The notes under the pieces were generated by a model. It did no database searches, was not told where the DNA came from, and saw nothing but the letters and a program-made list of their open reading frames with translations. Shown here piece after piece: positions 27-28,283 of a stretch of DNA of 64,000 nt (positions within the stretch are counted from its first letter, which is position 1; each line of letters begins with the position of its first letter). Origin of the DNA: Azolla caroliniana (taxonomy: Eukaryota; Plantae; Polypodiophyta); contig JBHGNT010000006.1 of NCBI GenBank assembly GCA_043228905.1, forward strand, positions 19,158,001 to 19,222,000. The letters run 5' to 3'. The translations under genes and the position numbers were made by a program.

Positions 27-436
27 TGTTGAGCGGCAAGCTCAACCGGAGCCGGATCGGCTGAATAAGCCGGAGCCGGTGAGCGAGACGGATCGGGCGA
101 AACGGATCGGTATGACAGTGAGCAACCGAACCAGAAAGCAGTGGAGGCCGGGTGCAATCCGTAACCGGCAGTCCAATCGGAAGCCTAGTACAGGATAGAC
201 TACTAGGTAGCTATAGTCTCGTAGTAAGTGTCTGATGCTCGTGTGAGCATTGAAGTACATGGTACTTCTGTCAGTCCCAAGAGGACTTGTATAAATAGTG
301 CTACTTAGCACAGTGTATAAAAAAGGGTCTTGATATAATTTTGAAATTGTGTTCTGCTCTCTCTCTCTCGCTCGCTCTCTCTCTCTCTCTCTGTGTTGTT
401 CTCTGTTTTACGCTTCCGCAAACACTTACGTTTACA
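27..436 (+). repeat. 5' LTR of copia element 1
   Basis: Direct repeat of 5556-5973. TATA-like TATAAATA near 288-295. CT microsatellite in R/U5. Confidence 0.96.
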
Positions 437-530
437 TGGTATCAGAGCACGAGGGTTGATAACCTCTGCTGCAGACATTTACTCTTGAGAAGAAAACCCT
501 AACAGGTCGAAAACAGACACACTAGAAGAC

Positions 531-3500
531 ATGGATAGAGGCATGGCTACGTCGCTCCCGGTGGAGAAGCTCGACAGGAGCAACTACGCATCCTGGTCTT
601 ACAAGATGCACCAGTACTTGCTTGGACACGGGTACTGGAGTTATGTCGAAGGAGCGAATGATGCGGCGCCAGACTCGGCACACAAGGACTTCCCGGTATG
701 GGAACAGGCGGCAAGCAGGGTGATGTACTGCTTCGCGTCCAGTGTCGGCGATCAGCTGCTCAGCCACATCCGTGACGCCAAGACACCGAAGGATGCTTGG
801 GGGAACCTGAAAAAGGTTTTCGCTGCAAGCACCACTGCCCAGAAGCTGCAACTCAGACAGGAGTTGAGCAATGTTCGACAGAAGAACATGTCCGTGGCAG
901 ACTACACGGGCCGGATAAAGGAGATCTGCGACTCGCTCGCCTCTATCAATGTTACCGTAGAGGAAGACGAGATGGTGCAGGTATGTCTCAGAGGCCTGGC
1001 GTCCAAGTTCGGAGCGTTCCGAACTGCGGTGTGTACAAGGGAGAATACCCCCTCATTCTTCGACTTACAGTCGATGCTCCTTGTAGAGGAGAACCACGCC
1101 GGTGCATCTACCAGTGCATCCCCGGACAGCCGAATGTTGTACACGGGAACGGATCGGCTCCATGGGCGTGGTGGAAGAGGTGGATCGGCACGCAATAGAG
1201 GCGGCCGGCAAGAGCAGGAACGGAGGCACTATGAGCGTGCCGACAGCAGTTCCGGGACTTCCACAAGCAGGGGGAGTCAAGGCGGTGCCGGAGGCTGGCA
1301 AGACAAATCCGCTACAGAATGCTGGTACTGTGGCAAAAAAGGCCACAGGGAAAGCGAGTGCTGGAGAAAGCGTGCCAATTCGGACAAATCCGGATCCGGA
1401 TCCGGATTCGGGCAAAACTCGCACTACGCAAACGGATCAGGAGGATCCGGAACCGGAAAGGCCAGTAAGGGGCCAGCCTTGGTGATGAATCACAAGGCAA
1501 ACTCAATGAAGCAGACCACTTCCAAAACGGAGGAAGTGTGGTATGTTGATTCCGGCGCGTCGAACCACATGATGAGCCACAAAGAGTGGTTCTCCTTTCT
1601 GGAGAAACCGGATCAACCAGGAGTAGTCGAAACCGGAGATGACACTCCTCACCCAATCGTGCACGTCGGAGAAGTCCCTCTAAGCCACGTCGGACAGAAA
1701 GGGAAGCTGATGAACGTATTACACGTTCCGACAATCACGAAGAACCTGGTGTCCGTCGGTCAGATTGTCGACCAGGGGATGCAGGTGCGGTTTACGCACC
1801 TCGGGTGCTTCATTGAGGATGAGGGCGAAGTCATTGCACAAGGGCGCAGAGACGGGAGGATGTTTATCCTCAACACCAATGACTTTGGCATCGCTCTGTT
1901 TGCGAAACGACAGAAGGTCGAGTCGGACATCGACCTGTGGCACAAGCAGATAGGCCACGTCAACTACCGGAGGCTTCAAGACCTGCAAACGAAACAAGTC
2001 GTTTTCGATTTGCCGAAGTTCAACGGCCGGAGAGCCGAAATTTGTGAAGCCTGCCAACTTGGGAAGCAACACCGGCTTCCATTCCCCACCGAACGGAACC
2101 GGAGCCGTAACAAGCTCGATCTCATCCATTCGGATGTGTGGGGACCGGCACAAAGTGTAAGCCTTGGCAGGAGCCGATACTTCGTCTCCTTCATCGACGA
2201 TTATACTCGACATACTTGGATCTTCCTCATTGAGCGGAAGGGCGAAGTCTTCGTCTGTTTTTGGAGCCTCCAGAAGATGGTGGAACGGGAATCGGAGAGG
2301 AAGATCAAATGCCTTCGGTCGGATGGCGGAAAGGAATATTTTTCCGGCCAATTCACTAGTTATCTGCAGCAGAAGGGAATTCGGCGAGAGTTCAGCTGCA
2401 GATACACACCAGAGCAAAACGGTGTGGCCGAAAGGAAGAACCGGACACTCGTCGAAGCGGCAAGGGCAATGCTGGAGGAGAAGAGCATGCCCCAGTTCTA
2501 CTGGGCGGAGGCGGTCCAGACGGCCGTCTACATACAAAACCGCATTGGTGACAAGGTGTCAGCTCATGAGCTGTATTTCGGGCGCAAGCCGAACTTAAGA
2601 CACCTTCGGATATTCGGCAACATAGCGTATGTGCATGTACCGGATCAGAAGCGGAGAAAGCTGGATGCAAAATCGGAAAAATGCATCCTAGTCGGCTATG
2701 CTCAAGAGCAAAAGGGGTATAAGTGCTATAACCCGCGGACGAAGGAAGTCCGAGTTAGCCGGGATGTCGAGTTCGACGAATCGGCATCCTGGTACTCCGT
2801 ACCGACTCCGACTTCCGATCCCGACCCAATGCCGGAAGATCAGGCCAGTGAGCCTGAATCAACCCTGGCAGAGGATGATGAAGCCGGGACTCAAGATGAG
2901 AGTCCAGAATCGTTTCGGTTAAGTGGACCGAACGAGCGACTGAGTCGGTTGGACCAGTCGGATGAAGAGACGGCAAGTGGTGGAGACTCTGTCGTGCTCT
3001 CCCCGCGCAAGGAACCGAGGAAACGGTTCACGCGCAAAGAGAAGGGGAAGAGGAAGATGCCGGAATTCGAAACCGGCAACGATGAGTCGGATCGGTGCGT
3101 ATCCGACTCTGGAAAGGAGAAAGGCAGATCTTTGGTAACGAAGACCGAACTGGCCAAGAAGAGCCTCAAATCAGGTGACGGTGCGTTGCGCCGATCAACC
3201 CGTCAGAAGGATCCCGTCGTGCGGTACGGGTACAATGAATACATGGCGCATCATTATGCGTACATGACTAAGGTGACAGAAGGGCGTGAGCCGGAGAGCT
3301 ACGCAGAAGCGGCAAGGGACGCAAATTGGCGTGCCGCTATGGACGAAGAAATGCGGGCACTCGATGCCAACGAAACTTGGGACCTAGTTGATCCCCCCCG
3401 TCACTGTAAACCGATCGGATGCAAGTGGGTGTACAAGGTCAAGTACAACGCCGACGGTTCTGTTAACCGGTACAAAGCCCGGTTAGTGGCGAAGGGATAC

Positions 3501-5561
3501 GCGCAGACCCATGGAATCGACTACGACGAGACCTTCGCTCCTGTGGCGAAGATGACGACGGTTCGTGTGGTACTAGCGGTTGCTGCGGCAAGGGGGTGGC
3601 ATCTTCACCAGATGGATGTGAAGAACGCCTTCCTTCAAGGAGAGCTTGAAGAAGAAGTCTTTATGACTCAGCCCCCCGGATTTCAATCGGAGATGAACAA
3701 ATCGGCGGTATGCTGACTGAAGAAGTCGCTTTACGGCTTGAAGCAAGCCCCCCGAGCTTGGAACGTGAAGATCACGCACCGGTTGCGTAAGCTGGGGTTT
3801 GTTGTCTCTAAGTCGGACTCTTCGTTGTTCATCCGGCAAGGCTCTGACGGTCCGGTATGTATACTCTTGTATGTGGATGATTTAGTCATCACCGGACCGG
3901 GTCTTCCCGAAATCAACCGCGTCAAGTCCCAGTTGTCGGACGCATTCGAAATGAAGGACCTGGGGGACCTTCATTATTTTCTTGGGATCGAAGTGATCCG
4001 GACCCCCAATGGCATATTGCTCTCACAACGACATTACGTGTTGAATATGCTGTATAAGTTCGGCATGACAGATTGCCGACCTGTCTCCACACCCCTGGAC
4101 CGGAACCAAAAGCTCCGTCCCAACTCCGGACCGGCCAATGAGAAACGGTTCCGACAGGTTGTCGGAAGCCTGATCTACTTAACCATCACCCGACCCAACA
4201 TCAGCTATCCGGTCGGCATGGTAAGCCAGTTCATGCAGAAGCCGACCATGGAGCACCTTCAGTGCGCGCAACGAATATTACGGTATGTCAGCGGCACTAA
4301 GGACCGGGGACTGCTATACCGGCGAGGTATACCCGAAGAGCTTGTCGGTTACACAGATGTTGACTGGGTCGGCGATGCGTCTGATCGCCGCTCCACTTCC
4401 GGATACATGTTCTCCATAGGTAGCGTGGCCGTTGCGTGGAGCAGCAAGAAGCAGCCCACAGTGGCTTTGTCAAGCACTGAGGCTGAGTACCGGGCCGCTA
4501 CTGTTGCCACCTGTGAAGCCATCTGGCTTCGGCGACTGCTGCGAGACATGCGGATCGAGGTACCGACCCCGATCCCGATTTACTGCGATAACATGGTCAG
4601 CCTGCAACTCGCCAGGAACCCTGTGTTCCATGCTCGCACAAAGCACATCGAGGTGCACTACCACTTCGTGCGTGAGCGGGTCCTGAACGGTGAAGTTGAC
4701 CTACGGTATGTTCATACGGATCGGCAAGTTGCCGACATCTTCACCAAGCCGCTCGGATCGGACAAGTTGCAGCACTTTACCGACATGCTTGGTATTCAGC
4801 ATCTCGACGTGCCACACTTGAGGGGGAGAAGCAAGGGCAAAGTCTCTACCGAAACGGGCAAAGGCCAAAAACCTGTTGAACCCGTCGGTAAGAGGAGAGC
4901 CGGAAGAAGAGGAGACAAGAAGCTGAAGGAAGCCGAGTCGACGAAGGAAGTCGACACATCCGAACAGGTCGGAGCAAGCGGCTGTGAAGAAGAGTTGTGC
5001 ACTCAGGAAGAGAAGCGCATGTTGTGCGGAGGTCATCACGACGGTACTGACCATGATACAGAGTCAAATGAAGAATTCGATTTCGGTTCACCGGCTGAAG
5101 AAGTCGAGGGAAGCATGGAGAAGGCCAGGACTCGGAAGTGGTCCGATGTGGTGAGAGGCCTGACGCCGGAAGTCGAATCGGAGTGTACCGATTCGGACAA
5201 GAGCTGGAACGAGTCGGAGACAGCTGACTCGGATCAACAGATGGATCCGGATGAGACGGATCGACTGAAGGCCAAGGGGACACGAACACAGCGGAAGTCG
5301 GTGCCATCGTGGGAGAACCGACGGATCGGCAAGCGTCGGAGTCACACCAACGTGAGTGCTGAGATGGGCCTATTGAGCAGACATGCTGACCGAGAGGGTC
5401 GAGGCGCGCAGAACCAAAGGGGTCGCGGCAAACGGGACCGGACCGGACGAGGAGCGCGAGCAAGGCGGAGTGACGCCAGGAGAAGTCGGTTGGAAGAACC
5501 GACTGCCACAGAGGTCGACACTACGACCCCACCTCAGGTTGAGCTTGAGGGGGAGTGTTGA
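531..5561 (+). pseudogene. Copia Gag-Pol polyprotein (gag CCHC knuckle, protease, integrase, RT, RNase H, long C-terminal extension) with one in-frame TGA at 3714-3716
   Basis: ORFs 531-3716 and 3738-5561 are in the same frame. Motifs [29 protein letters not shown] integrase, [15 protein letters not shown] and ADIFTK are present. The stop sits where CRLKKSLYGLKQ is expected (CGA>TGA). Confidence 0.93.
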
Positions 5562-5898
5562 GCGGCAAGCTCAACCGGAGCCGGATCGGCTGAATAAGCC
5601 GGAGCCGGTGAGCGAGACGGATCGGGCGAAACGGATCAATATGACGGTGAGCAACCGAACCGGCAAGCAGTGGAGGCCGGGTGCAATCCGTAACCGGCAG
5701 TCCAATCGGAAGCCTAGTACAGGATAGACTACTAGGTAGCTATAGTCTCGTAGTAAGTGTCTGATGCTCGTGTGAGCATTGAAGTACATGGTACTTCTGT
5801 CAGTCCCAAGAGGACTTGTATAAATAGTGCTACTTAGCACAGTGTATAAAAAAGGGTCTTGATATAATTTTGAAATTGTGTTCTGCTCTCTCTCTCTG

Positions 5899-5931
<33 letters not shown>

Positions 5932-5973
5932 GTTGTTCTCTGTTTTACGCTTCCGCAAACACTTACGTTTACA
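5556..5973 (+). repeat. 3' LTR of copia element 1
   Basis: Follows the PPT GAGGGGGAG, matches 27-436 and is followed by the TSD CAGTT. Confidence 0.96.
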
Positions 5974-11434: not shown

Positions 11435-14400
11435 TGTTAAGAAAACGTGAAGAAGGCACTCGGGCTCTTCTTATGTATGCGCGGCGGATCGTAGTGTGCT
11501 GGATCGTTAGCGTGCTCTAAACAGACAGAGAAAGGAAAGGGGACTTACCTCTGTAGTAGCAAAATGGTTTTCTTCTATTACATGTAGAGCTCAACTTGCT
11601 CTCGTCAGTCTTCTGGTCTCTCACTCTCTCTCAGAGTTCTCTACTCTCTATTCTCTGTTTTTTCTTACTACTTCTTTCCTATTCACTCACTCTTACTTTT
11701 ACCTAAGTCATAAGTTATTACACATGCAGCTAATTAGCTGCCAGTAGCTAATTAGCTGTCAGTCGCTAAATAGCTGTTCACTAGCTAATTAGTTGTCACT
11801 AGCTAAATAGCTGTTTTACCTTTTTGTTCACTAGTAGCTAAATAGCTACTATAGCTTATTTCTCATAAGCATCGCATACCATGTTGAGCTTGCTTCTCAA
11901 CACTCCCCCTCAAGCTCAACTTATCCTTTCTTGGGGTTCTCTTCAATCTTCTTTTCCATTTTGCTTTTTAGCCATCTCATCAATGTTTACAACTCCCATC
12001 ATGTTCCGAAACTGTGTATGTTTTTCCACACTCAATCCCTTTGTGAGAATATCAGCAACCTGCTGATTTGTATTCACATACACCAGATCAACTTCTCCTT
12101 CAATCACTTTTTCTCTAACAAAGTGATAATGCACCTCAATGTGCTTTGTTCTTGCATGGAACACTGGGTTCTTTGCAAGCTGAATGCTGCTCATATTGTC
12201 ACACCAGATTGTGACAGTACCGTCTATATACTCTCCCAAATCAGCAAGCAATCTTCTAATCCATACCTCTTCACAAGTGGCTATGGCAGCTCCTCTGTAC
12301 TCAGCTTCAGTACTAGACAATGCAACAGTAGCCTGTTTCTTGCTACTCCATGAAATACCTGCACTTCCCAAGGTAAACATGTATCCACTTGTGGATCTCC
12401 TGTCTGTTTGGCTTCCAGCCCAATCAGCATCTGTATATCCTTCCAGATTTATGTCTAGATCAGCCCTGTAAAATAGTCCAAAGTTCTGAGTTGCTTTTAC
12501 ATACCTCAGAATCCTTCTGATGCAGTCCAAATGTGGCTTTGTTGGCTGTTGCATAAACTAGCTGACTAATCCAACTGCATAACTCAAATCAGGTCTTGTT
12601 ATGGTCAAATAAATAAGGCTGCCCACCATAGACCTATACATGTTTACATCTTCTATTTTGGCTCCCAAATCAGCCCTCAATTTGCAGTTTTTATCAAGTG
12701 GTACAGCAATAGGTTTGCATCCAAGCATACCATACTTTTTCAACATAGTTGTTGCATACTGTTTTTGCAACATACATATACCACTTTCAGATCTGATGAT
12801 TTCAATACCAAGAAAATATCTCAGATCTCCCAAATCTTTCACATGAAACTGCATTTCCAGATTTTTTTTCAACTTTCTTATTTCATCCACGGAATCTCCT
12901 CCAATAATCAAATCATCTACATAGATCAGAATAATAACAATGCAATCATTTTCACTTTTTACATACAAAGAAGGATCAGCTTTTGACATTTTGAAACCAA
13001 GATTTTTCAGAGAATCTGAAAGTTCTCTGTGCCATGCTCTTGGTGCCTGTTTCAGTCCATAGAGAGCTTTTTTCAGCTTACATACATAATCAGGATGTTT
13101 CTTATCTTCAAAACCTGGTGGTTGACTCATATACACTTCTTCTTCCAAGTTACCATGTAAAAAAGCATTTTTTACATCCATGTGATGCAAAATCCATTTT
13201 CTGGCTGCTCCTACAGCAAGTAGTGTTCTCAAGGTTGCCATCTTTGCAACCGGTGCAAAAGTCTCATCATAATCAATCCCTTGCATCTGAGCATATCCTT
13301 TTGCAACCAATCTTGCTTTATGTCTACTTACATTCCCATTGGAGTCATGCTTTGTCTTGTAGACCCATTTGCAGCCTACCACATTTTTCTCTTTTGGTAA
13401 CTTCACTAAATCCCACGTTTTGTTCTCAGCCAATGCATCAATCTCTTCTTGCATTGCATCCATCCATTTCTTCTCAGATTTTGCTTCTTCAAAGCTGTTT
13501 GGGTCAGGGATCTGTACCACCTTAGACATATATGCATAGTGCATAGCCATATATGTATCATACCCAAATCTTTCCACAGTCTTTTTCTCTCTATCTGATC
13601 TTCTCAGTTTCTGATTTGCATTCTTTATTGCCTTTTCCATACCAGGGATTTTCATTTCCTGTATTCCAAGGAACTCATCCAAAGACATATCTGAATCTTC
13701 ATCTTCCATGTTTTTTGATAGGTCATCCGGGATTTCATACTCTGGCATTTTCTGTTTTCCTTTTTTGTCATCAGATTTTTTCTGTCCAGTTTTTCCACTC
13801 CATGAATTTGAATCAGATTTACCATCTGAGCTTTTTGATGGTCCAGAACATTCTGTTGATGTTGGACTTTGCTGTCCAACCTTGTCTCCATCTCTGTGAC
13901 AGTCTTCTACATTTTCTGATCTGTCTTTGTCTTCAATCTCATTGTCTTCATCAGTCTCTGGATTCTGTTTTGGACTATACCAGCTGGCTAACTCATCAAA
14001 GATTACATCCCTACTTGTCACAATCTTCTTTGTTACAGGGTTATAGCATCTATACCCTTTTTGTTCTTCTGAATAGCCAACAAAAATACATTTTTCTGCC
14101 TTTGGATCCAGCTTACTTCTTACTTCTGCAGGCACATGTACATATGCAAGGCATCCAAACACTTTCAAGTGTTGTAAGCTAGGCTTCCTGCCATAAAAAC
14201 ACTCTTCAGGAGTTGCCTCATGTACTCCTGATGTAATACATCTATTTAAAATGTAATTTGTTGTATTTACAGCTTCTGCCCAATAGTATAATGGCATGTT
14301 CTTCTCAGTCATCATTGCCCTTGCTATGTTCACCAAAGTTCTGTTTTTCCTCTCAGCAACTCCATTTTGCTGTGGAGTATATTAGCATGTGAACTGTCTT

Positions 14401-16880
14401 CTTATTCCCTGATTACACAAAAAATCAGAAAATTCATTGGAGAAATACTCTCCTCCTCCATCAGATCTCAAACATTTTATCCTTGTACCAGCCTGCTTTT
14501 CTACCATGCATTTAAACTTACGAAAACAGTCAAATACTTCACTTTTCTCCTTCATGAAGTACACCCATGTCTTCCGTGAACAATCATCAATAAATGTAAC
14601 ATAAAATCTGCATCCACCAATAGATGCATTCTTTGTTGGTCCCCATACATCTGTATGTACCAAATCCAACAGATTTTTGCTTACATGTCTCTCATGAGGG
14701 AATGGCAACCTGTTTTGCTTACCATATTGACATGCTTCACATACTTTTCCCATTTCACACTTTTTCAAGTTTGGCAGTCCAGCCACTGCATCTTTTCTCA
14801 ACATATTCTTTAATGTTTGCATACTTATATGGCCAATCCTTTTATGCCACATTTCCACATCTGAGATTACACTCGTTCCATTTGCAAACATGGCTGAAAT
14901 CTGTTTGGGCATTTCTACATCCAAGATAAACATTCTTCCTTGTCTCTTCCCTTTTGCAATGAGCTTCCCATTCTTTTCTATATAGCATCCACTTTGCTTA
15001 AACTTCACTTGCATACCTTGCTCTACAATCTGTCCAACAGAAATCAGATTCTTAGCAAGGTTTGGAACATGCATCACATTCAACATATACTTGGTTTTTC
15101 CTCTTTCTTCCCACAATGGGATATCTCCAACATGTTTTATTTGGTGAGTTATGTCATCACCTGTTTGTACATAACCAGGAACCTCTGGTTCTCTTAAACT
15201 CTCAAACCAATTTGCATGTCCAGTCATATGGTTAGATGCCCCCGAGTCTACATACCTCGTAAACTCTTCATTACATTTCTGTGAGCTTTCAGCCACTGCT
15301 GCTATCTCATGTTGCACTACAAAAACACCTTCCTTTTCACAATCTTCACTAGTAGAGGCATAGTTACTCTGTTGTCCTTTTCCTCTTTTCTCATCATTTT
15401 GTTTCTTATAACATTCAGCCTGTGTATGGCCTGGTTTACCACAATACCAGCAGCCATCATCATTTACATAAGTTTGCTTACCTCTACCTCGGTTGCTCCC
15501 CCTGCCTCTGTTGTTGTTTCCTCCTCTATGAGCTTGTTGTCCTCTTCCTTGAAAGCCATTATTATTGGTTCTTCCTGAGCCAAATCTTCCATGGCCTCTT
15601 CCTCGGCCTCTTCCGGCATTATTATAGAGGGCTTGCCCCTCGTTCTCTGAGTTTCCTTTATTTGCATCATCCATCTGATTCCTTTCCTCTACCACATGCA
15701 TTGAGACCAGATCTGAAAAACTTGGGATATTATCCCTTGTGAGCATAGAAGTTTTAAAACTCTTGTATTGAGGTCCTAAGCCTCTTAAGCATATTTCCAC
15801 TTTGTCATCATCTTCTATCTTCACATTGATAGAAGCAAGTGATTCACATATACTCTTGATTTTTAGGGCATATTCATTTATTGACATCTTACCTTTCTCC
15901 AAGGTATTTAGCTCAGTCTTTAACTGGAGCTTTCTAGCCTTTGTGTTCACAGCAAACAGTTTTACCAAGTTGTCCCAAGCTTCTTTTGGGAGCATAGCAT
16001 CTTGTATATGCCCAAGCATTGAATCTGAGATGCTGAGTGATAGCCAATGCATTACTTTCCTTGCCCCTTGATTCCAATCTTTAAATGCCTTAATATGTGC
16101 AGCTGTTGCATTCTCTTCTGGGATCTCTGGAGCCTCTTCTAGGTCTCCTTCAATGTAATCCCAGTATCCTTTCCCCATCAGAAAGTTTGTCATTCTGAAT
16201 TTCCACGCCGGGAAATTGTTTTTATCTAATTTCTCTGTGACCATTTGGCCTACATTCTCTGCAGCCATTTTTTTCCTCCCAAAAAACCAGGGTTTTGCTT
16301 TAGTTACTTCAACAAGTAACTTTCTGATTTCTGATCAGCAACCAGAGAAATAACTTTCTCAGATTAAGGCACTGCTATACTCTTCCTTACGAGCTACTCT
16401 GCTCTGATACCATGTTAAGAAAACGTGAAGAAGGCACTCGGGCTCTTCTTATGTATGCGCGGCGGATCGTAGTGTGTTGGATCGTTAGCGTGCTCTAAAC
16501 AGACAGAGAAAGGAAAGGGGACTTACCTCTGTAGTAGCAAAATGGTTTTCTTCTATTACATGTAGAGCTCAACTTGCTCTCGTCAGTCTTCTGGTCTCTC
16601 ACTCTCTCTCAGAGTTCTCTACTCTCTATTCTCTGTTTTTTCTTACTACTTCTTTCCTATTCACTCACTCTTACTTTTACCTAAGTCATAAGTTATTACA
16701 CATGCAGCTAATTAGCTGCCAGTAGCTAATTAGCTGTCAGTCGCTAAATAGCTGTTCACTAGCTAATTAGCTGTCACTAGCTAAATAGCTGTTTTACCTT
16801 TTTGTTCACTAGTAGCTAAATAGCTACTATAGCTTATTTCTCATAAGCATCGCATACCATGTTGAGCTTGCTTCTCAACA
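11435..16880 (-). mobile_element. Full-length, very young Ty1/copia element (AT-rich relative of element 1)
   Basis: 468-bp LTRs at 16413-16880 (5') and 11435-11902 (3'), differing at 2 positions by my reading. TSD CTATG at 11430-11434 and 16881-16885. PBS at 16401-16412. PPT at 11903-11911. Confidence 0.97.
11943..16268 (-). pseudogene. Copia Gag-Pol with two in-frame stops (14382-14384 TAA, 12558-12560 TAG)
   Basis: Three ORFs in one frame. Motifs [30 protein letters not shown] and ADILTK. The stops replace R in CRYTP and Q in VSQFMQ. Confidence 0.93.
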
Positions 16881-19800
16881 CTATGGTCATGCAAATAGCC
16901 GACCTACAATAGGCTCCACATATTCGGATGCGAAGCCTACGCATTCATCCCTAGGGAGAAAAGAACCAAGTTGGCACCCCATGCAACGAAATGCATATTT
17001 CTCGGTTATGGAACCGATGGGGAATTCGGCTACAGGCTATGGGACCCAGAGAACCGGAAATTGATTCGGAGTAGTGATGTGGTCTTCAATGAAGACTCTA
17101 TTCTCTCTGCGAGGAACCAGCAGAAAATAGTTGGTAAAAAGGTCTCTTTCGAAGTTGATAGAGACGTCGTAGAAAGACCGACCCAACGGGTTGAATCAGA
17201 GATTCAACAAACAGTTGAACTCAACCAAGCCGACAACACACCTGTCGACTCCAAATCGGTAGGAGGTCCACTAGTCTAACTCGAAGACAAAGCCAAATCG
17301 ACAAGAGTCGCAAAAGGCAAAGTCAACAAGGTGCGAGCCGAAGACGACAAAGTCAACCCAACTAAGACACCCAAGGTCAAAGGGAAAAACATATCTGAGT
17401 CAGCTAAGTTCCCCCCTCCTGAAGAAGGGGAGGATGATGTGACCTCACTGAAATACTATCATAGGGGCGAGTCACCCAACATGACTACTTATATAAACGG
17501 TTCAGGAAGTACCTATCGACCAACATAGTCGATCGAAGGATCCAAACCAATCAATACAGCACCCAAGAGATCTGGACGAGTTCGAAGGCCAACAAAGTTC
17601 TAACAATCGACCTCGACTATGTCAACTACACCGGTGCAGGCGAACCAAGCACATACGAAGAAGCTAAAGCAGCATCGGACGTTGATACATGGCTACAAGC
17701 CATGAGATGTGAGATGGACTCAATCCATCATAACAATACATGGGAGTTGGTCGAACTACCAGCTAGCAGAAAGTCATTGCCCTACAAATGGGTTTTCAAA
17801 CACAAATATGTATCTGACTCAGAGAAGCCCAAGTACAAAGCTCAGCTCATCGCAAAGGGCTTCAAGCAAGAACATGGAGTTGACCACGACTAGATATTTT
17901 CTCCAGTAGTCAAGATGACCACCTTTCGACTCCTACTAGGGGTCATGATAACAGAAGACCTAGAGTTGGAGCAACTAGACGTCAAGACGGCATTCCTACA
18001 CGGAGATCTGGAAGAAGACATCGTCTCAACCGGAAGACTTCACGGCGATAGGGGAGGAAAGTCACCTCATATGCCGATTGAAGAAAAACCTTTATGGCTA
18101 GAAGTTTGACTCCTACACTACGCAACTTGGATACCGTCGATCTGACTCCAACCCATGTCTATATACTTAGCAATTGTCCAACGAGTCCTGGATCTATCTA
18201 ATCCTATACATCGATGACATGCTGATTGCAGGGAGAAATGAAGCAGAAATCAAAAAGCTAAAGTGGAACCTTCACGAGAAGTTCGCGATGAAGGAACCAC
18301 GACAAGCCCAACACATATTGGGCATGAGAATAGAGTGAAATCGGATGACAAAGACTCTCCAACTCTCCCAGTCCGATTATATTCGAAAGGTGTTGAAACG
18401 CTTCAACATGGAGAACGTGAAGCTTGCACCAACACCGCTTCCGAAGTCGATCCGACTATCAGATAGAGACTCTCCTTCGACGAAAGAGGGGAAAGAGCTT
18501 AATGGAAAGATACCCTACGCATCGGCCGTAGGAAGTATCGTGTACGCGATGGTGGCGACCCGACCTGATCTTGCTTATGTTGTAGGGGTCATCAGTTGAT
18601 ATATGTCAAACCCAGAACGGAAGCATTGGGAGGTCATCAAGCACATCTTCAAGTACCTGAGAGGGACCGAAGATGTACAACTGACTGTCGGATTGACAAA
18701 CCCGACCGAAGTCGAAGGCTACACCAATTCCTATTACGTCGGGAATTCGGACAATCGGAAGTCCACATCAAGTTATGTTTTCACCTATGGCGGCGGCGCC
18801 ATATCATGGAGGTCGAAGCTGCAAGAGTGCATGACTCTGTCTGCCACAGAGGTTGAGTATATAGCAGAGCAACATCAGATGCAGTGAAAGAAGCAATCTG
18901 GTTGCACCGGTTGTCAACTGACTTCTTTGTGACAAGTTGAATTGACCATCAAGCGTCAACCATCTGTTGCGACTCACATAGCACAATACACCTCATCAAT
19001 AATCATGTCTATCATGCGAAGACAAAGCATATTGAGGTGCGGTATCATCATATTCAAGAGCTTGTAACAGAGAAGAAGCTTGATGTTTGGAAGATTGACA
19101 TTGAGGTGAACATCACCGATTTCCTGAGGAAGCCACTCCCAAATCAACGTTTCGGAGCACTGAGGACAAAGATGGGACTATGACAAGCGATCGAGCAGAA
19201 GAAAGCCGAACACGGAGTAGAAGGTAAGTTGAAGATCCAACCAACTCGGACAAGCCAAATCAAGCTAGATACCGACCTTATCTCTGTCGACTTGGCTATA
19301 TGTCGAACAACTTGTAACCATAACTTTAGATTAAAGTTGTAATCTAGGGTTACGGAGGAGATAACCTCATACAATTGTAATTAGAAAAATTAGTCCTTTT
19401 ACGGGGGAGTTTGTTGGCATAAAAGGCCAACACCTTCCAATTTGTATCCTAGTGTAAACACGTCCAAATAGTTAGGGCTTTGTATATAAGGAATAACTTA
19501 ACGTTGTAACAGATGACTTATTGATCATTCTTATATTGTGAGTCTCTAAGAGAGAGAGAGAACAGACATAACAAAGCTTCCATTAAAGCTTAAGAGCGTG
19601 TTCATCTTCTTGTCTTCAATCTTTCTATGTTGTTTGCTTAGTACTTCTAGACAAGTCCTCATACATACTTCTGCACATATTCGAACACCATATCTCACAA
19701 AAAGTGCTCTTTGAGCACATTCGATGTACAAAGTATTGAGTTTATTTTTGAAATAGAGTTTATGTTCGGCTCTCTTTGTCTCTCCCGTGTACTCTATATT

Positions 19801-19918: not shown

Positions 19919-21579
19919 ACTCACTATACAATGTTAGGTTTGGGCTTATATACTCAAGCCCTAACTCGAGAACATATTCACACTTAAGGTTACAATGTGG
20001 ATGGAGTTGGCCTTTTATGCCAATGGGTAATAGATCTTAGCAGGCATAGTTCATCGTTGGTTTGTCTCTTTGAAAGTAGCTTCAAACTCAGTGTGAAAGG
20101 CTGGGAATTCATCCAAAAGCAGTGATGTTGTTTCCATCAAGGGAGTGAATCACAACTCCATTGGTCCCGTCAATAGTGAACCCAAGAGACCGACCTGGTA
20201 GGAACCTGTGGCGCTTCCAAAAGCAATGATGTTGTTTCCATCAAGGGAGTGAACCACGCCTCCATTGGTCCCATCAACAGTGAACCCAAGAGACCGACCT
20301 GGTAGGAACCTGTGGTGTAACGAGGCGGATGATGAGGCAAATTTGATTAAGGAAACTGCGTAGTCGTGACCGCGTTCCATCAAACTTATCGAGAAGGTTG
20401 ACCTTGGGTTCATAGTAGGGTGGTAGTGGGTTGAGTTTGATGGTTGGGGTAACTGAGGATGTGGCAAACTGAAGATCAAGTAAAGATTTACAAAGGGTAG
20501 CATTCTCAGCTAGGAGTTGTTTTAAAGTTGTGAGTATTTGAGGTAGGCTATCGGTAGGATGTGACATGGCTTCCGATGTGAGGTTAACGGAGAGGGTGTC
20601 ACATACATGACAACAATTATGTCAAGATTCGAACTCTTGACCTCTTGTATTAGATAATCAAGTGTTATATTGTAACCAACACATCCCGGTATATGATCGT
20701 GTTATGTATATCTTCGTAGATTATCTATTCACGTTCTAGGAGTTTTTAGAAAGTTCTAGAACTTGAAGGTTCTAGAGGGTTCTAGAATATTCTCCAAAAT
20801 ATTCTCTAGAATATTCAAATGCATGTACTTCAACTCACAATATAAATACTTGTAACCTCCTTGGTCCCTTTCAAGGGATTCAACACCAGTCATTGACGCA
20901 TGAATATAGTGTTCTCGTTTCACCTCATCTTGTTTCATTGATCTTCATTTCTATCTTCATACACTTGTGTCTTTCCTAGCTTCTTGGTGTGTTCGTGACA
21001 ATTTGAATCCCTTCCAACTGGAAGCATCAACCGTCTTCATCATCAACCTTGCTTCTAGAGTTACCATCATCATCGTCCTTGCTTCAAGAGTTACCGTCAT
21101 CAACATCCTTGTCTTTGACATCATCATTTTTAGCACCTCTTCGCCCAACCTTCATTGTCATCAACATTACTTTACATGGTCTTTCATTATCATCATTGCT
21201 CCGCTCTCTTCATTGTCATTGTTATCATTTATAGGTATCCTTTTGCATCACAATTTTGGTGAGGATTGCGTTCAATCGCTCACCTTCCCAGTTCATGTGG
21301 GGGTTACAACTGCTCACTCTCCTGGTGGGGATCGAATCATTGCTCGCTTGCACTCCATTTTCATTTTAGTTCAAGTTTTGCACTACTTCTCATTCGCGAG
21401 GACCGATTTCGATCGCACACTTTCTAGTTTCAGTGGGGGTCACAACCGCTCACTCTCTTGGTGGGGATCGCGTTGGTTTCTCGCTAGCGCTGCCGTTTGT
21501 GCCGTTTTTGGGGTCAACCTCGACTATTTACCCTCTCATAATAGAAGAAGGCGAGTCGACCGATTCACTTGCACTCCTT

Positions 21580-22060: not shown

Positions 22061-22488
22061 TGCCCACCACTTTTTGTTCACCCCTACACTGTGCTTTCGA
22101 AAAGGCGGTTATAAAGGGGAGGATAATGTCACAGGCATGTCCACAACTATGTCGAGATTTGAACTCTTGACCTCTTGTATTAAATAATCAAGTGTTATAT
22201 TGTAACCAACACATCCAAGTACATGATCGTGTTATGTATATCTTCGTAGATTATCTATTCATGTTCTTGCTATGACTGTAGGATCGTGACAAGGAGTGCA
22301 AGCGAACTAGCACAACTATTGAGATGATATGGGAAGAGTAAGAAAAGAAATAAAGCAATGATGCAAGTGAAACTAAGGTGAGTAGGATTAGAGGTGAACA
22401 AGAGTAAAAGAGAATGAGAGAATGAGATGAAAGACAAAGAGAAGAGTGAGTGAGAAAAAAGAAAAACTTAAGAAATTTTCATTAGAAA

Positions 22489-22540
22489 GACCTTGTGCAA
22501 ACTAGTTTCGCTCTAGGTAGAGCTCATTAGTGCCAAGGTC
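22489..22540 (-). ncRNA. Minimal type I hammerhead ribozyme motif (this copy has a G5>A core change)
   Basis: Minus strand reads GACCTTG-GCA CTAATGA GCTCT-ACCT-AGAGC GAAA CTAG TT TGC-A-CAAGGTC. Stem I is 10 bp with a bulge, stem II is 5 bp, and stem III is the minimal palindrome ACTAGT. Confidence 0.82.
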
Positions 22541-22754
22541 ATTTACAACAAGAGGGTAGGTTTATATAGGGGGAAGAGAGAGAGAGAGAGAGAGAGAGAG
22601 AATAGGAGTTTAATGATGGGAGAGAGGGAAACGGGGAATTGTGATAGGTAATGGATTGGTTAGTGAAAGTGGGTTAGAGGGGGGTTATATGTATGTATAT
22701 GATAAGTGATAGGTGGGGGTGGGTGTGGGGGTGGGATATAAAAGGCATATAGTA

Positions 22755-24617
22755 TTAAGTGGGAGTATTTATGGATTTATATTTAGTTTTGACGAGAAGG
22801 GAATGAATGGACTTAGACTTAGTCCAACATATGAAGGGTCGCAGTAGTTCGGATAGTTGGGGATGTGTGGCTAAATATGTGTGGAGGTTTTCTAGCATGT
22901 CGTGAATTCCTAATCTAGGGGTATCTTTCGTATACCTAAGTTTGAAGATGACAGGTATAAGGGTACTTTTAGGTTTTCTGCTAAATACTAGTGATTTCCT
23001 AACGCTAAATGGCACCTTTTTATAATTCTCTAATATAAAAGAAAGGGGATATCCTCTCTTAACTAATCTACTAAAAAATAGTTTTTTCATTCGAAGGAAA
23101 CCTAAGGGGGTACTTTCTCTAATTAGGTATCGTTTTAGTTCATTAATAATAAAATGACGTTTTAAGTGAAGGGGGTGAACTGACGAGAATGAGAGATATT
23201 GGTAGGCATTTTGGGGCTTTTGGTAGCAATTAAAGGAGAAATGTGAATTCTTTAGGTTAATCCATAAATCTAAGAACGGTAATCTAAAGGGAGAAGTGAT
23301 GATGGTAATTTTGATGCAATTATTAGTGGAGGTGTTATAAAACTGGAGGTAATTTTCTAATTCGGGTTTAGTACCTATCCATATCCCGAATGCATCATCT
23401 ATATATCTAGTGAAATAAAAAAGATTAGGGTGTGATGGTTGGGAGTTCTCTAAGTGAGCTAAGAATAGGCATGCATAAACTACAGAAAAATTACTACCCA
23501 TGGTTGTACCCTTGACTTTTTGATAGATCATGTCATCAAAGGATAGAAAGTGATATTCTAACGTGAGTGCGCTAAGTGTATAGATAAGGTTAGTTTTAGA
23601 AGATGAAAAATGTGGGGTAATCATTTTTCGTAAAGCTTGGAGTCCTAACCTAGGGGGTATGTTGGGATATAAAGATTCAACATCAAAGGTGAAGATAAAG
23701 CTATTAGGGGGTGGGTTGAGATGTTCTAAAGTCTGGACAAGGGAATGTGAGTCTTTCAAATATTGTTTTTGAAGGAGAAGGATAGGCATGAGTTGGTGGT
23801 GAAGCCATTTTGATGTTTGTTCAAAAAGGGAGTTATTGTATGAGCAAATAGGTCTAAAACCTATTGGGTTTTTATGGAGTTTTGGGAGGAAATAGATATT
23901 GCATACTTTGTACCCTTTTGAGGGTTTATGTAGTATGTAATTGGCTTCTATGTTGGATAGGGTACCAAGATGGTTATTAACAATGCTTTTCAATCTATAG
24001 GATAATTCCTCAAGTGGATAGTGGGAGACTTTTTTATATGTATTAGTATCAGAAAGGTGTTCTATAGCTTTGTTATAGTACGTGTCCTTATCAAGAACAC
24101 ACACTCCAACATTCTTGTCAGCAGGTAGGATTATGATTTTGTTGTTTTTCTTAAGAGATTGTAAGGCTAGTGATAAGTGAGGTGCAATCCTAGTGGGTTT
24201 TAATTTGAGTGTATGAAGTGTGTCCCTAAAGATAGTTTGGTGTTTAGATATAATGTTTTCTAGGGGAGTGTACTTAGTAGTAGGTTGCCAACTAGGGTTA
24301 GGTAGCTTAAAGGGATTTTGGGGCAAATTATCCACATCTTTAAAAAAATGTTTAAGTCGAAGGGTCCTACTTAGGCTATCAAATTCTTTAAGTAGGGTAG
24401 GGGATGATGGTGGAGAAGATGGGAGGATGTGTTTCAAACCTAGGCTAAGGAGTTGTGTCTCATGTTTAGAGAGGGAATAATTAGAGTGGTTGTGGATCCT
24501 ACTAATTCTAGGTTTATTAAGGAAAGGTGTCCAAAATTTATTACGAGGTTTCCTACTATGGGTCTTTTTCACATATGGGGAGAAGGGAAAATTAGATGTA
24601 TGACGTCCTAACCACAT
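22755..24617 (-). CDS. Penelope-like reverse transcriptase (no endonuclease domain visible)
   Basis: Motifs LLSLGLKH, LPADKNVG, YFLPKLHK, FRPICS, FDVESLYPNIP, GTTMGSNFS, RYIDDAFGIW, LPFLDL and YQKP...YL...S.HP are diagnostic of PLE RTs. The ORF ends after the thumb region with no GIY-YIG motif. Confidence 0.9.
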   Translation of the reverse strand: MWLGRHTSNFPFSPYVKKTHSRKPRNKFWTPFLNKPRISRIHNHSNYSLSKHETQLLSLGLKHILPSSPPSSPTLLKEFDSLSRTLRLKHFFKDVDNLPQNPFKLPNPSWQPTTKYTPLENIISKHQTIFRDTLHTLKLKPTRIAPHLSLALQSLKKNNKIIILPADKNVGVCVLDKDTYYNKAIEHLSDTNTYKKVSHYPLEELSYRLKSIVNNHLGTLSNIEANYILHKPSKGYKVCNIYFLPKLHKNPIGFRPICSYNNSLFEQTSKWLHHQLMPILLLQKQYLKDSHSLVQTLEHLNPPPNSFIFTFDVESLYPNIPPRLGLQALRKMITPHFSSSKTNLIYTLSALTLEYHFLSFDDMIYQKVKGTTMGSNFSVVYACLFLAHLENSQPSHPNLFYFTRYIDDAFGIWIGTKPELENYLQFYNTSTNNCIKITIITSPFRLPFLDLWINLKNSHFSFNCYQKPQNAYQYLSFSSVHPLHLKRHFIINELKRYLIRESTPLGFLRMKKLFFSRLVKRGYPLSFILENYKKVPFSVRKSLVFSRKPKSTLIPVIFKLRYTKDTPRLGIHDMLENLHTYLATHPQLSELLRPFICWTKSKSIHSLLVKTKYKSINTPT

Positions 24618-24721
24618 GAAAGTATCTAAAGTAGAAGTAGGTCTATCGAGAAGGTAAAAGAGACGTTTCGCGGGATGTATGGCTTGCCGAAACTATTTAC
24701 TATCCCGTTTGGCACGCCTAG

Positions 24722-25681
24722 CTACACGTTTTTTGTCCTAACATTATTACATGGGAAAGTTTGTCGTTTTGCGGGAAGGGGGCGATTATTGTGAGTACGG
24801 ATAGGTTGTTTTCTATGAGGGATTTCATATAAGTGTGGGGGAAATTTAGAGGGTGCGGTAGAATATTGAAATCTACTAGAAGTAGAAGGGGAGTTATGTG
24901 TAAAGAAGGGGGGGGTATGTGTAGGAAATGCATGAAAAGGGGGAGGGGTATAGTTTGGAAATAGGGAAACGTTGTGGGGGTTATTAGGGGGGAAATGCAT
25001 AGGGGCATGGTTAAAAAATGGGGGAGGGGTATGAGGGGGGTTTATAGAAAATAAAGGGGGGGCATGCATCAAATTTGTAGGAAGTAAGGAGGGGGGGGGA
25101 GGGGCATGATTAGGGTTAAACACATATGGGAAGTGAGAGGGTATGTTTGAAATTGTCTGCAAGGGTGGGCTGGGGAGGAGAGCAGGAGGAGGAGGGCCGA
25201 GAGGGAAAGATGGAAGGTCGTTCGTGCCATGGCTTGCATGATCTCCTGCACAACCGCCATGGGGATACACTTCTTGTCTTATGTTGGCACGTGTGCCGCT
25301 TCCATAAGATGTACGGCCTTCGCATTGGATGGACCTCCCATATCGGCCCGTAGGATAATTACCGCCACGGCTCATGTGGCCGCCGTTATGGTGTGACAAT
25401 CGTCCACCATCGCCGCACGTGTAGCCACTATCGAAGTAAGATCTTCGCTCTCTGTTGTATCCTTCCAATTCAAATTCCGGCGAGGTATGGTGGTGATGTA
25501 TAGGCTCGTGTGAGGCTGAAATATATTGGTTTGAATTTCATTCGATGTTGGACAGATGCCCTCGGTGGGTATGTCGCTTCCGCCGCGCATGAGGGAACCG
25601 TGTGCCCTATATGGTTAGTTGGGTTGTAGATAGGATTAAAGAAAGGGCGATTAGGGTTATAAAGTAAGACTCGTGGGCCAT
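24722..25681 (-). pseudogene. PLE ORF2: low-complexity protein (Gly/Arg/Tyr-rich, then Pro/Phe/His-rich, then basic), probably fused to RT by a -1 frameshift
   Basis: Open from 25468 to 24722. It extends in frame to an ATG in good context at 25681 if one TAG and one TGA are read as CAG and CGA. Confidence 0.5.
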
Positions 25682-25736
25682 AATGGTTTTGATGAGGATT
25701 TCTACTTACTTGATTATTTGTTATGTTGCAGATGTA

Positions 25737-26756
25737 TTACGGGAGGAGGTTCCGGTGGTTCAACGATCGAGGATTTCTTTTTGCTGGAAAATTAGGGTTA
25801 GGGTTAGCAATAGGGTTAGATTTTTGAAAGGGATTAGGTTTTAGGTTCTTTGTAGAGGATTTTAGTTTGGGGTTGGGGTTAGAGTTAGAGTTAGCATTAG
25901 CTTTAGGGTTAGGTTTTTGAATGGGATCATTTGTAGAGGATTTCTTTGGTTTTTCACTCCCAATGTAATTTGGAATTGTAAAGGGACTGTTATAAACATT
26001 ATAATCTTCATTATCACTCATCTCTATGTCGATTTCTCTAACATTGTTGTGCATGCTACTCTCTGCTTTGTCTCTACCGATAGTGGCCTTCTTTCTAATA
26101 GCCGCGGTAATAGAATATGTAACTTCTACTTCATCACAAGATCTAAGTATTTCTGTGGCAAACTCTTGCTGCCAATGTGCCATTCTATCTTGGAATGAAT
26201 CAGGACCTACTAGTGATGTTACTTCTTGTATGAATGGGGGTTCTTGCATTGTTTCCATTATTTTTACTATGTCGGTACGAACTTGATTAGGAAAATCATC
26301 TATGGCTTTGGTTAATGCGTGGACTAATAAGTCTAAATGCCTAATATAGCATGTTGTAAGATCCTTGCGATATTGTGTTGTGAGGGCTAGAAATTCTGTT
26401 CGCAAGCTCGAATTGATCTCCTCATGACCTATTGTTAATTTCGGTGGGTGAACCCTAAGATTATGAGGGGTGATGTCATGTGAGTTTAGATAAGAGATAT
26501 GCGTATACGTATTCTTAGCTTCTTGTGTGCGCCTATAAAGATGTTTAAATTCAGATGCCACTTTACGCTTATAGTCGTCAAAGTGGTGTGAGGACATATA
26601 TGAGTCGGAGGAATTTACCTTTTCATTACTAGGATTAGAGTTGAGGAAAGTTGGGGATAATGTAGGGGCGCGTTGTCGTTTATTAGAACGTTTGTTGGCG
26701 CTTCTAGGTTTTGTTGGTGTCGGTGTAGTTGATGCCATCGCTGCAAAAGTCATCAT
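25737..26756 (-). CDS. PLE ORF1, unknown function (basic N-terminus, predicted helical core, Asn-Pro-Lys-rich tail)
   Basis: About 340 open codons inside the PLE boundaries, on the same strand as RT. ATGs at 26756 and 26738. No recognisable domain. Confidence 0.6.
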   Translation of the reverse strand: MMTFAAMASTTPTPTKPRSANKRSNKRQRAPTLSPTFLNSNPSNEKVNSSDSYMSSHHFDDYKRKVASEFKHLYRRTQEAKNTYTHISYLNSHDITPHNLRVHPPKLTIGHEEINSSLRTEFLALTTQYRKDLTTCYIRHLDLLVHALTKAIDDFPNQVRTDIVKIMETMQEPPFIQEVTSLVGPDSFQDRMAHWQQEFATEILRSCDEVEVTYSITAAIRKKATIGRDKAESSMHNNVREIDIEMSDNEDYNVYNSPFTIPNYIGSEKPKKSSTNDPIQKPNPKANANSNSNPNPKLKSSTKNLKPNPFQKSNPIANPNPNFPAKRNPRSLNHRNLLP

Positions 26757-28283
26757 ATGTTGTGGAGTTTTTAGAATGTTCAAGTTCTAGAGGGTTCTAG
26801 AATATTCTCCAAAATATTCTCTAGAATATTCTAATGCATGTACTTCAACTCAAAATATAAATACTTGTAACCTCCTCGGTCCCTTTCAAGGGATTCAACA
26901 CCAGTCATTGACGCATGAATATAGTGTTCTCATTTCGCCTCATTTTGTCTCATTGATCTTCATTTCTATCTTCATACTCTTGTGTCTTTCCCAGCTTCTT
27001 GGTGCGTTCGTGACAGAGGGGGAGAGAGCAAAAGGAAGGTGAACAAACTATTAAAGACAAAAGTAAAAACGGAATTACAAGAGCTTACTAGTTGGCGCAA
27101 GGACGCGATTGTCAAACGCAAAAGAGTGAATATCATTAACTAGTGTTGTTCACCTTGAATTCATTCAAGGTGAACTCAAATCTTTATACTAAGCGGCGTG
27201 CATGCCTATTGCATGCATGTGATACAATAGAGCATGTATGTACACATGCATGTGCCAAGTGTATATAATACAAGGGAGCAAACATGCACATGATCGTATA
27301 CTGGATATGTTGGTTAACACATAACACTCGATTATAATGCAAGATGTCAAGAGTTAGAATCTTGACATAACCACTGTCATGTCCGTGACAATATCGCTCT
27401 TTCACTTTGAGTTCACCAAATAACGTCGCCAAGTTACATGCATTCGTGTGCTACTTGAGCGGGACCACCAGGGACTTGAACTAGAGAGGATGGATGATTC
27501 GAAGGCTCGTCAGTGTTGAATGATTGTCAAAGTGGAAAGATTGCCGAACTCGAAGGCTCTATAGAGTCGAAGGTAGTAGCAATTCGAACAGTGAGTTATG
27601 TTAATTAATCTAAAGAAACATGAGATTATGAATATATTTTACAATACTAAGTCTAGATTTTCCTTTATATAAGCTAAAACATTTCATTATGAAAAAAATT
27701 CCCTTTATAAAATAGGGTTTACAAGATGTTGGAGTTTTTTATTACAATAATGATAATTTTTCAGGAATTAAACATGAACTAAGAACCCTAAATCTTAATG
27801 AAGAAGATGAAAAATTAAACCCTAAAACAATAAGTATCATGTGGAGAATAAGAAGAAGATAAAGACAAAAAGAATAAGAGTGAAGCTTCTGGGAGAAAAT
27901 CCTCGAGTTTCGATGTAAACTCCCAACAATCAATGGCCGCGTTGCCTCTTGTTGATAACGGTTTTACACGCCCTCTTGATTTGCTACCTTCGCTTCCTAA
28001 TCCAACAAAGTTTTTACATCTCTTTCTCTCTCTCCCCCCTTTATTTGAATTCTCTTCACCCTTTTATAAGATTAAGGAGGCTTTCTTCTCAAATAAAAGT
28101 ATGTGCTTTTTTAATTTTATTGCACGTCATGCTTTTTCTTTCCTAAATTAACAATAAAGTCACAAAATGTCTTCACACCATCAATTTATCAATCAACCTT
28201 TTAAATAATCCTAGGTTAACTAAAATTCTCCAATTGAACATCCCACATCACAACAACGAGAAACTCAAATATCTAGTGATCGA

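Follow-up and report, generated by a model that had tools for sequence, protein, structure and literature searches.

The window analysed here is a stretch of 64,000 nt from Azolla caroliniana (GenBank assembly GCA_043228905.1, contig JBHGNT010000006.1, positions 19,158,001 to 19,222,000). Its minus strand carries a copy of a Penelope-like element (PLE), whose features are collected in Table 1. The copy differs from its sibling L036 by 107 substitutions over 4521 aligned bases; where siblings stand in tandem (C20 and C29), their spacing gives a unit of ~4.66 kb. The window's copy is dead. Its ORF1 is cut by a TAA at 25739, where 13 of 13 sibling matches have CAA, and broken a second time by an 8-nt gap near 25548. 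Counted from the heptamer, the RT frame spans 659 codons in intact siblings; in the window copy it runs through one TAG into a frame of 645 codons. In the intact L036, an ORF1 of 745 codons and an RT frame of 660 codons share 13 nt. ORF1 measures 745–850 codons and the RT frame, in −1, 659–678 codons in five intact copies, which come from different families. The upstream frame, which the initial annotation had described as a separate ‘ORF2’, turns out to be the broken 3′ half of this one long ORF1. The hammerhead core reads CTAATGA in the window copy and CTGATGA in most siblings, and the motif was also found in siblings of several families.

Table 1. Features of the PLE copy and its frame junction (window coordinates)
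Feature	Position	Strand	Basis or remark
Endonuclease-less Penelope-like element copy, 5′-truncated and decayed	22264..26767	-	BLASTN to siblings, 95-96%
ORF1 in pieces: helical N-terminal domain, Pro/Asn-rich low-complexity tail, basic end	24722..26767	-	one 745-codon frame in L036
Slippery heptamer A_AAA_AAC, phase right for a −1 slip	24728..24734	-	sequence, siblings, other families
ORF1 stop TAG (TAA in some families), one codon past the heptamer	24722..24724	-	siblings, families
Conserved bulged stem-loop (helix 1), predicted frameshift stimulator	24681..24718	-	arms 24718-24707 and 24693-24681; weakened here at 24684
Helix 2 of the initial annotation	24671..24707	-	24707-24702 with 24676-24671; present here, not conserved
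RT frame: basic N-terminus, DKN motif, RT core with YIDD, thumb, without GIY-YIG	22755..24734	-	Pfam RVT_1 E 7e-6 (below its cut-off); PLE homologues; tree
Premature TAG in RT frame	24693..24695	-	CAG or other sense codon in most copies
Hammerhead ribozyme motif, 3′ region	22480..22543	-	weak Rfam HH9 match, E 1.9

Apparently the PLE copy is nested in one of the LTRs of a small, non-coding LTR-like element: positions 20597-21000, with 46-bp tandem repeats inside, match both PLE flanks (22127-22267 and 26769-27015) at 91-96%. No target-site duplication was seen around the copy. Elsewhere in the window (27-5961, 11435-16843 and 18339-19183) there are ordinary LTR retrotransposons, with copia-like fragments of RT/RNase H and two pairs of long direct repeats, near-identical and spaced by 5529 and 4978.

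The element belongs to a land-plant clade of PLEs; it is Coprina-like and lacks an endonuclease. It has a PLE-type RT, tandem and 5′-truncated copies and a 3′ hammerhead; GIY-YIG is absent after the thumb, and the RT frame ends at ~660 codons in intact copies. Named RT homologues at 37–41% are from Cryptomeria and Selaginella, together with the model Gb_11119. These homologues and all families bearing the putative frameshift form one 27-row clade (100/99) of a 53-row RT tree. An uncharacterised Selaginella protein roots the clade (the rows include no named Coprina reference), and family O (L176) falls on a branch with gymnosperm rows. The CxC motif and the fingers insertion between RT motifs 3 and 4 that mark Chlamys/PLE-X1 were not seen on inspection of the translation by eye. 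Motifs 3 and 4 are separated by ~47 residues, near the Coprina row in the supplement of PMC8557442.

Past the hammerhead, nine CCCTAA were counted in 500 nt in family B5, few in E and none in A, D, H and I. The loci L062 and L064 show plant-telomere-like repeats 3′ of the ribozyme in families B5 and E; telomeric and interstitial families apparently coexist. Seventeen family-A sites are interstitial, 0.5–11 Mb from contig ends. Family-A copies L031-L048 are without telomeric repeats and often lie beside gag-pol-like frames; TGTCACG, similar to the start of an LTR, occurs in the fixed 3′ end of the family.

Searching the same genome at the DNA level gave 40 matches, and the best 30 of these, window copy included, served as the close-copy set. 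On the minus strand the upstream frame ends with ACA AAA AAC GTG TAG; the RT frame is the −1 frame and is closed directly upstream by TAG 24740-24738. The initial annotation had placed a heptamer in X_XXY_YYZ phase near the stop, and this was borne out, with a single GTG codon between the two. The heptamer is in phase in 29 of the 30 close copies, while the stop is kept in 30/30. The TAG inside the RT frame had been attributed to CAG>TAG decay. This is supported by C at 24695 in 24 of the 30; the six copies with T are the window copy and five loci of one local array on C15. At 11.428-11.441 Mb of C15 (L026-L030, L120), short units of ~1.35 kb carrying the junction form an array, all with the RT-frame TAG.

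The junction is a family trait, not an indel. A run of seven A's in other copies, which according to the initial annotation would give one continuous ORF and make the split a simple indel, is not what the copies have: among 96 distinct junction contexts, six A's occur in 92, seven in two, eight (through substitution) in one and four in one (part of the set was found with a pattern requiring six or more A's). Both contexts in which a seventh A fuses the frames belong to broken copies. A protein search returned 152 matches in many families. Seven divergent families of the same genome (A-G) all keep the heptamer, one codon and the stop, with one decayed copy having CAA at the stop. A junction pattern, drawn from the same families that it then recovers, matched the genome 99 times vs 0 for the reversed control.

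A metagenome scan produced 76 loci, of which 57 were examined (the rest are without the junction) and 48 of the 57 belong to the plant clade. The in-phase A_AAA_AAC is present in 44 of these 48 junctions, many of which come from one record series and are non-independent; of the other four, two are broken copies, one has G_GGA_AAC and one has C_CCA_AAA/A_AAA_AAG. Distant families, with 36–47% RT identity, retain the long ORF1, the −1 overlap (67–571 nt) and the in-phase heptamer. For further comparison 20 representatives, related and not independent, were picked by hand from the 48 junctions; among them AAAAAAC is in phase in 20/20 cases in the overlap vs 23/46 in the RT body. Family K has G_GGA_AAC at the homologous site, which changes KKR to GKR and is still slippery; this is known from one locus (L166), of which the genome that holds the window has no close copy. 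Another single locus, L190 (434-3588), a PLE at 31% identity, combines a 451-codon ORF and a −1 overlap with G_GGA_AAC, a stem-loop and a spacer of 6 nt.

In family M (L169:2148-2178 and L170; own-genome L199-L201, L205, L206 and L210) A_AAA_AAC occurs twice in phase, at a distance of 24 nt. The hairpin 3′ of the first heptamer holds the second in its loop, and the ORF1/RT overlap is 454–535 nt. An apparent −1 overlap in L184 was rejected as decay located inside the RT.

The 62–65 nt 3′ of the heptamer form a long bulged hairpin, with z ≤ −2.1 in 12 of 14 and ≤ −2.0 in 16 of 20 representatives; the stem is weak in the other four (z −1.9 to −0.2). It starts 5–9 nt past the heptamer, the firm stem at 9 nt in family A and at 5–7 nt in most others, and three of its core GC pairs are invariant. 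Among 15 family rows, helix 1 has 82% of cells paired and a double change in 9 of 16 pairs. Its covariation score was reached by 0 of 500 shuffles and was above all slid controls, although these controls leave kinship in and the structure was drawn from the same sequences. Synonymous conservation in the hairpin is only modestly raised, at 0.59 vs 0.48, with the junction window in 5th place out of 621 (Fisher p 0.037). In families A and B the spacer can base-pair on the 3′ side of the stem.

The initial annotation had proposed a pseudoknot or two-state structure formed by two interleaved helices. Both complementary segments are indeed present in the window copy, the helix 2 segments are also complementary in 13 of 30 family-A copies, and a PLE frameshift with a pseudoknot was drawn by Craig et al. 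(PMC8557442). Still, stimulation of the −1 frameshift through helix 2 is very unlikely. Across families, helix 2 has about 39% of cells paired (38.6% and 38.7%) and no compensatory change. Its 5′ strand is CGGGAT in 15 of the 30 close copies and is changed without compensation in 14, including the nine CGCGAT copies, the subfamily with intact RT frames where helix 2 is broken. No loop-to-downstream helix is common to the 14 representatives. The apparent switch in the window copy, where folding gives a pair probability of 0.99 for helix 2 vs 0.01 for helix 1, arises because of a mismatch at 24684 that no other close copy has (A in 1/30, C in 27/30 and T in 2/30). The pair probability of helix 1 is at least 0.99 in 26 of the 30 close copies under nested folding; among family-A copies, helix 2 prevails over helix 1 in just the window copy and L018, both with private damage. 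A stem-loop, not a pseudoknot, is the best reading of the conserved element predicted by folding, helix 2 being limited to part of one family; single families may still have a tertiary contact of their own.

Splicing could also join ORF1 and RT, with KKR and its A-run as a by-product of a nuclear localisation signal, and a TAG found 3 nt 5′ of the heptamer in families A, B1 and D could be taken for an acceptor. However, no YAG position is common to 18 representatives (B4 has a single one, at +35, and M lacks any). KKR is written as AAA AAA CGN in five deep lineages (A, I, J, N and O), for which chance is ~1 in 1,000 by a hand product from codon use that assumes independence. Family K loses KKR yet retains a slippery heptamer, and we consider splicing very unlikely. 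Among raw RNA runs, one from a relative placed 35 reads, <99% alike, on 2.6 kb without a listed joint or indel at the junction, and two others placed 0 reads on 301 bases; these runs carry no weight for or against splicing.

Separate production of the RT, by reinitiation at an internal AUG or from a shorter RNA, would fit the Met at codon 40 that is common to families A-D, F and H and at which database proteins begin (P0001). The first in-frame Met is too far inside the RT frame elsewhere, at residue 172–456 in six families (E2, I, J, K, M and N) and at about 316 in the intact family-A copy L123. Moreover, the protein is under coding constraint 5′ of codon 40. Variation by codon position in codons 20-39, which lie 3′ of the hairpin and 5′ of any Met, is 0.35/0.20/0.58 vs 0.25/0.17/0.52 in the RT body, a similar pattern, as expected if these codons are translated. 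Such production of the RT is highly improbable. The addition of one A by RNA polymerase on the six-A run, or a chance indel, has seven A's in two broken copies in its favour and almost no credibility otherwise, as an added A would serve in any phase while the motif is in phase in 20/20, G_GGA_AAC has no long run and exactly six A's stand in 92/96 contexts. A one-base loss from the A-run in one contig (depth 4.6) may be an error, and would miss the RT frame.

The ORF1 domain is homologous across all families, and its model consists of three long helices (pLDDT 88.6). No match to ORF1 was found in Pfam or Atlas. Foldseek with the ORF1 model gave no match at E 0.001 or better, and the best VIA hits (Z 9.0) were to unrelated helical bundles, with no specific fold match. 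The hhalign comparison of ORF1 with the N-terminus of single-ORF PLEs gave a probability of 15–25% and E of about 0.001 in two of four template groups (E 0.13 in one reversed control), and the homology this would suggest is only a lead. The PNPNPN run of ORF1 (25900-25790) is coded by CCCTAA/CCTAAC-like repeats resembling reverse-complement telomeric repeats. Residues 26-70 of P0028 (Gb_11119) match the ORF1 of family K with E 5e-5 among 123 proteins; the N-terminal part of Gb_11119 is probably an ORF1 piece fused to the RT by gene prediction.

Taken together, the comparisons of junction sequences make it very probable that ribosomes slip back one base on A_AAA_AAC at the ORF1/RT junction, slowed by the predicted stem-loop 5–9 nt downstream, and that a minority of them produce ORF1-RT. 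The stem would slow ribosomes at the heptamer, where two tRNAs would re-pair one base back. The majority of ribosomes would terminate at the end of ORF1 and release the helical ORF1 protein. The minority would yield an ORF1-RT fusion of ~1,400 residues, and the two products could stand in a gag/gag-pol-like ratio. We infer the slip and its rate; a structural or RNA-packaging (or chaperone) role of ORF1 is suggested by analogy with gag only. The programmed −1 frameshift with gag-pol-like logic proposed by the initial annotation, joining the upstream ORF to the RT, is supported by conservation, by phase and by the failure of the rival explanations. Judged from sequence comparison, the junction is real, clade-wide and likely a programmed −1 frameshift.

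If so, the true RT N-terminus would extend ~40 or more residues beyond database models and be fused to ORF1, and attention would turn to ORF1 as the protein that an element without endonuclease would employ in abundance. The clade offers natural junctions by the dozen, with two heptamers, stems that covary and young copies still intact, and recoding is directly testable in plant extract. More tentatively, and with some doubt on our part, the −1 frameshift may be ancestral to all endonuclease-less PLEs of the land-plant clade, including the gymnosperm branch, and may split what single-ORF Penelope elements encode as one polyprotein, with ORF1 as the homologue of their N-terminal domain. Were this true, telomerase's closest mobile relatives would use a retrovirus-like ratio of structural protein to RT, and database models that start at an internal Met or bridge the junction by an intron would be systematically wrong.

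The literature covered yielded no description of a frameshift in plant PLEs; earlier primary PLE papers may describe the junction in Selaginella or conifers. For animal PLEs, the legend of Fig. 1 in Craig et al. 2021 (PMC8557442) indicates that a frameshift with a pseudoknot can separate ORF1. This mark in one legend on animal elements is, in the parts of the literature available, the extent to which an ORF1/RT frameshift in PLEs has been recorded so far. The mark reportedly refers to Athena/Terminon. As in the animal two-ORF PLEs described in PMC8557442, a coiled-coil-like ORF1 lies here 5′ of the RT in another frame, with a 3′ hammerhead and no endonuclease. Unlike them, the present elements belong to a land-plant clade, have a stem-loop and not a conserved pseudoknot, and in family A lie far from contig ends.

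The endonuclease-minus Coprina PLEs treated in PMC13159263 include Selaginella Sm1/Sm2 and the two-ORF Coprina-1_Alen of Ascochyta; one ORF is called typical, and the word ‘frameshift’ is absent from the accessible portion of that paper. With Coprina, as presented there, our element shares DKN-RT-thumb without GIY-YIG, the basic NLS-like start of the RT frame, a coiled and disordered ORF1 and the hammerhead. It differs in that family A is interstitial and without telomeric repeats past the hammerhead.

The initial annotation had likened the junction to the gag-pro signal of MMTV. The heptamer of that signal is A_AAA_AAC, the same as here, and this half of the likeness holds. The other half fails: the MMTV signal has a pseudoknot (PMC5009743), and a conserved pseudoknot is absent from the junctions compared here. 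Stem-loop stimulators are known from astrovirus, HTLV-II and HIV-1 (PMC7618472). Unlike those viral signals, the junction described here lies in a non-viral, non-LTR host element; like them, it combines a heptamer, a short spacer and a stem-loop, and the spacer pairing in families A and B recalls the lower stem of HIV-1.
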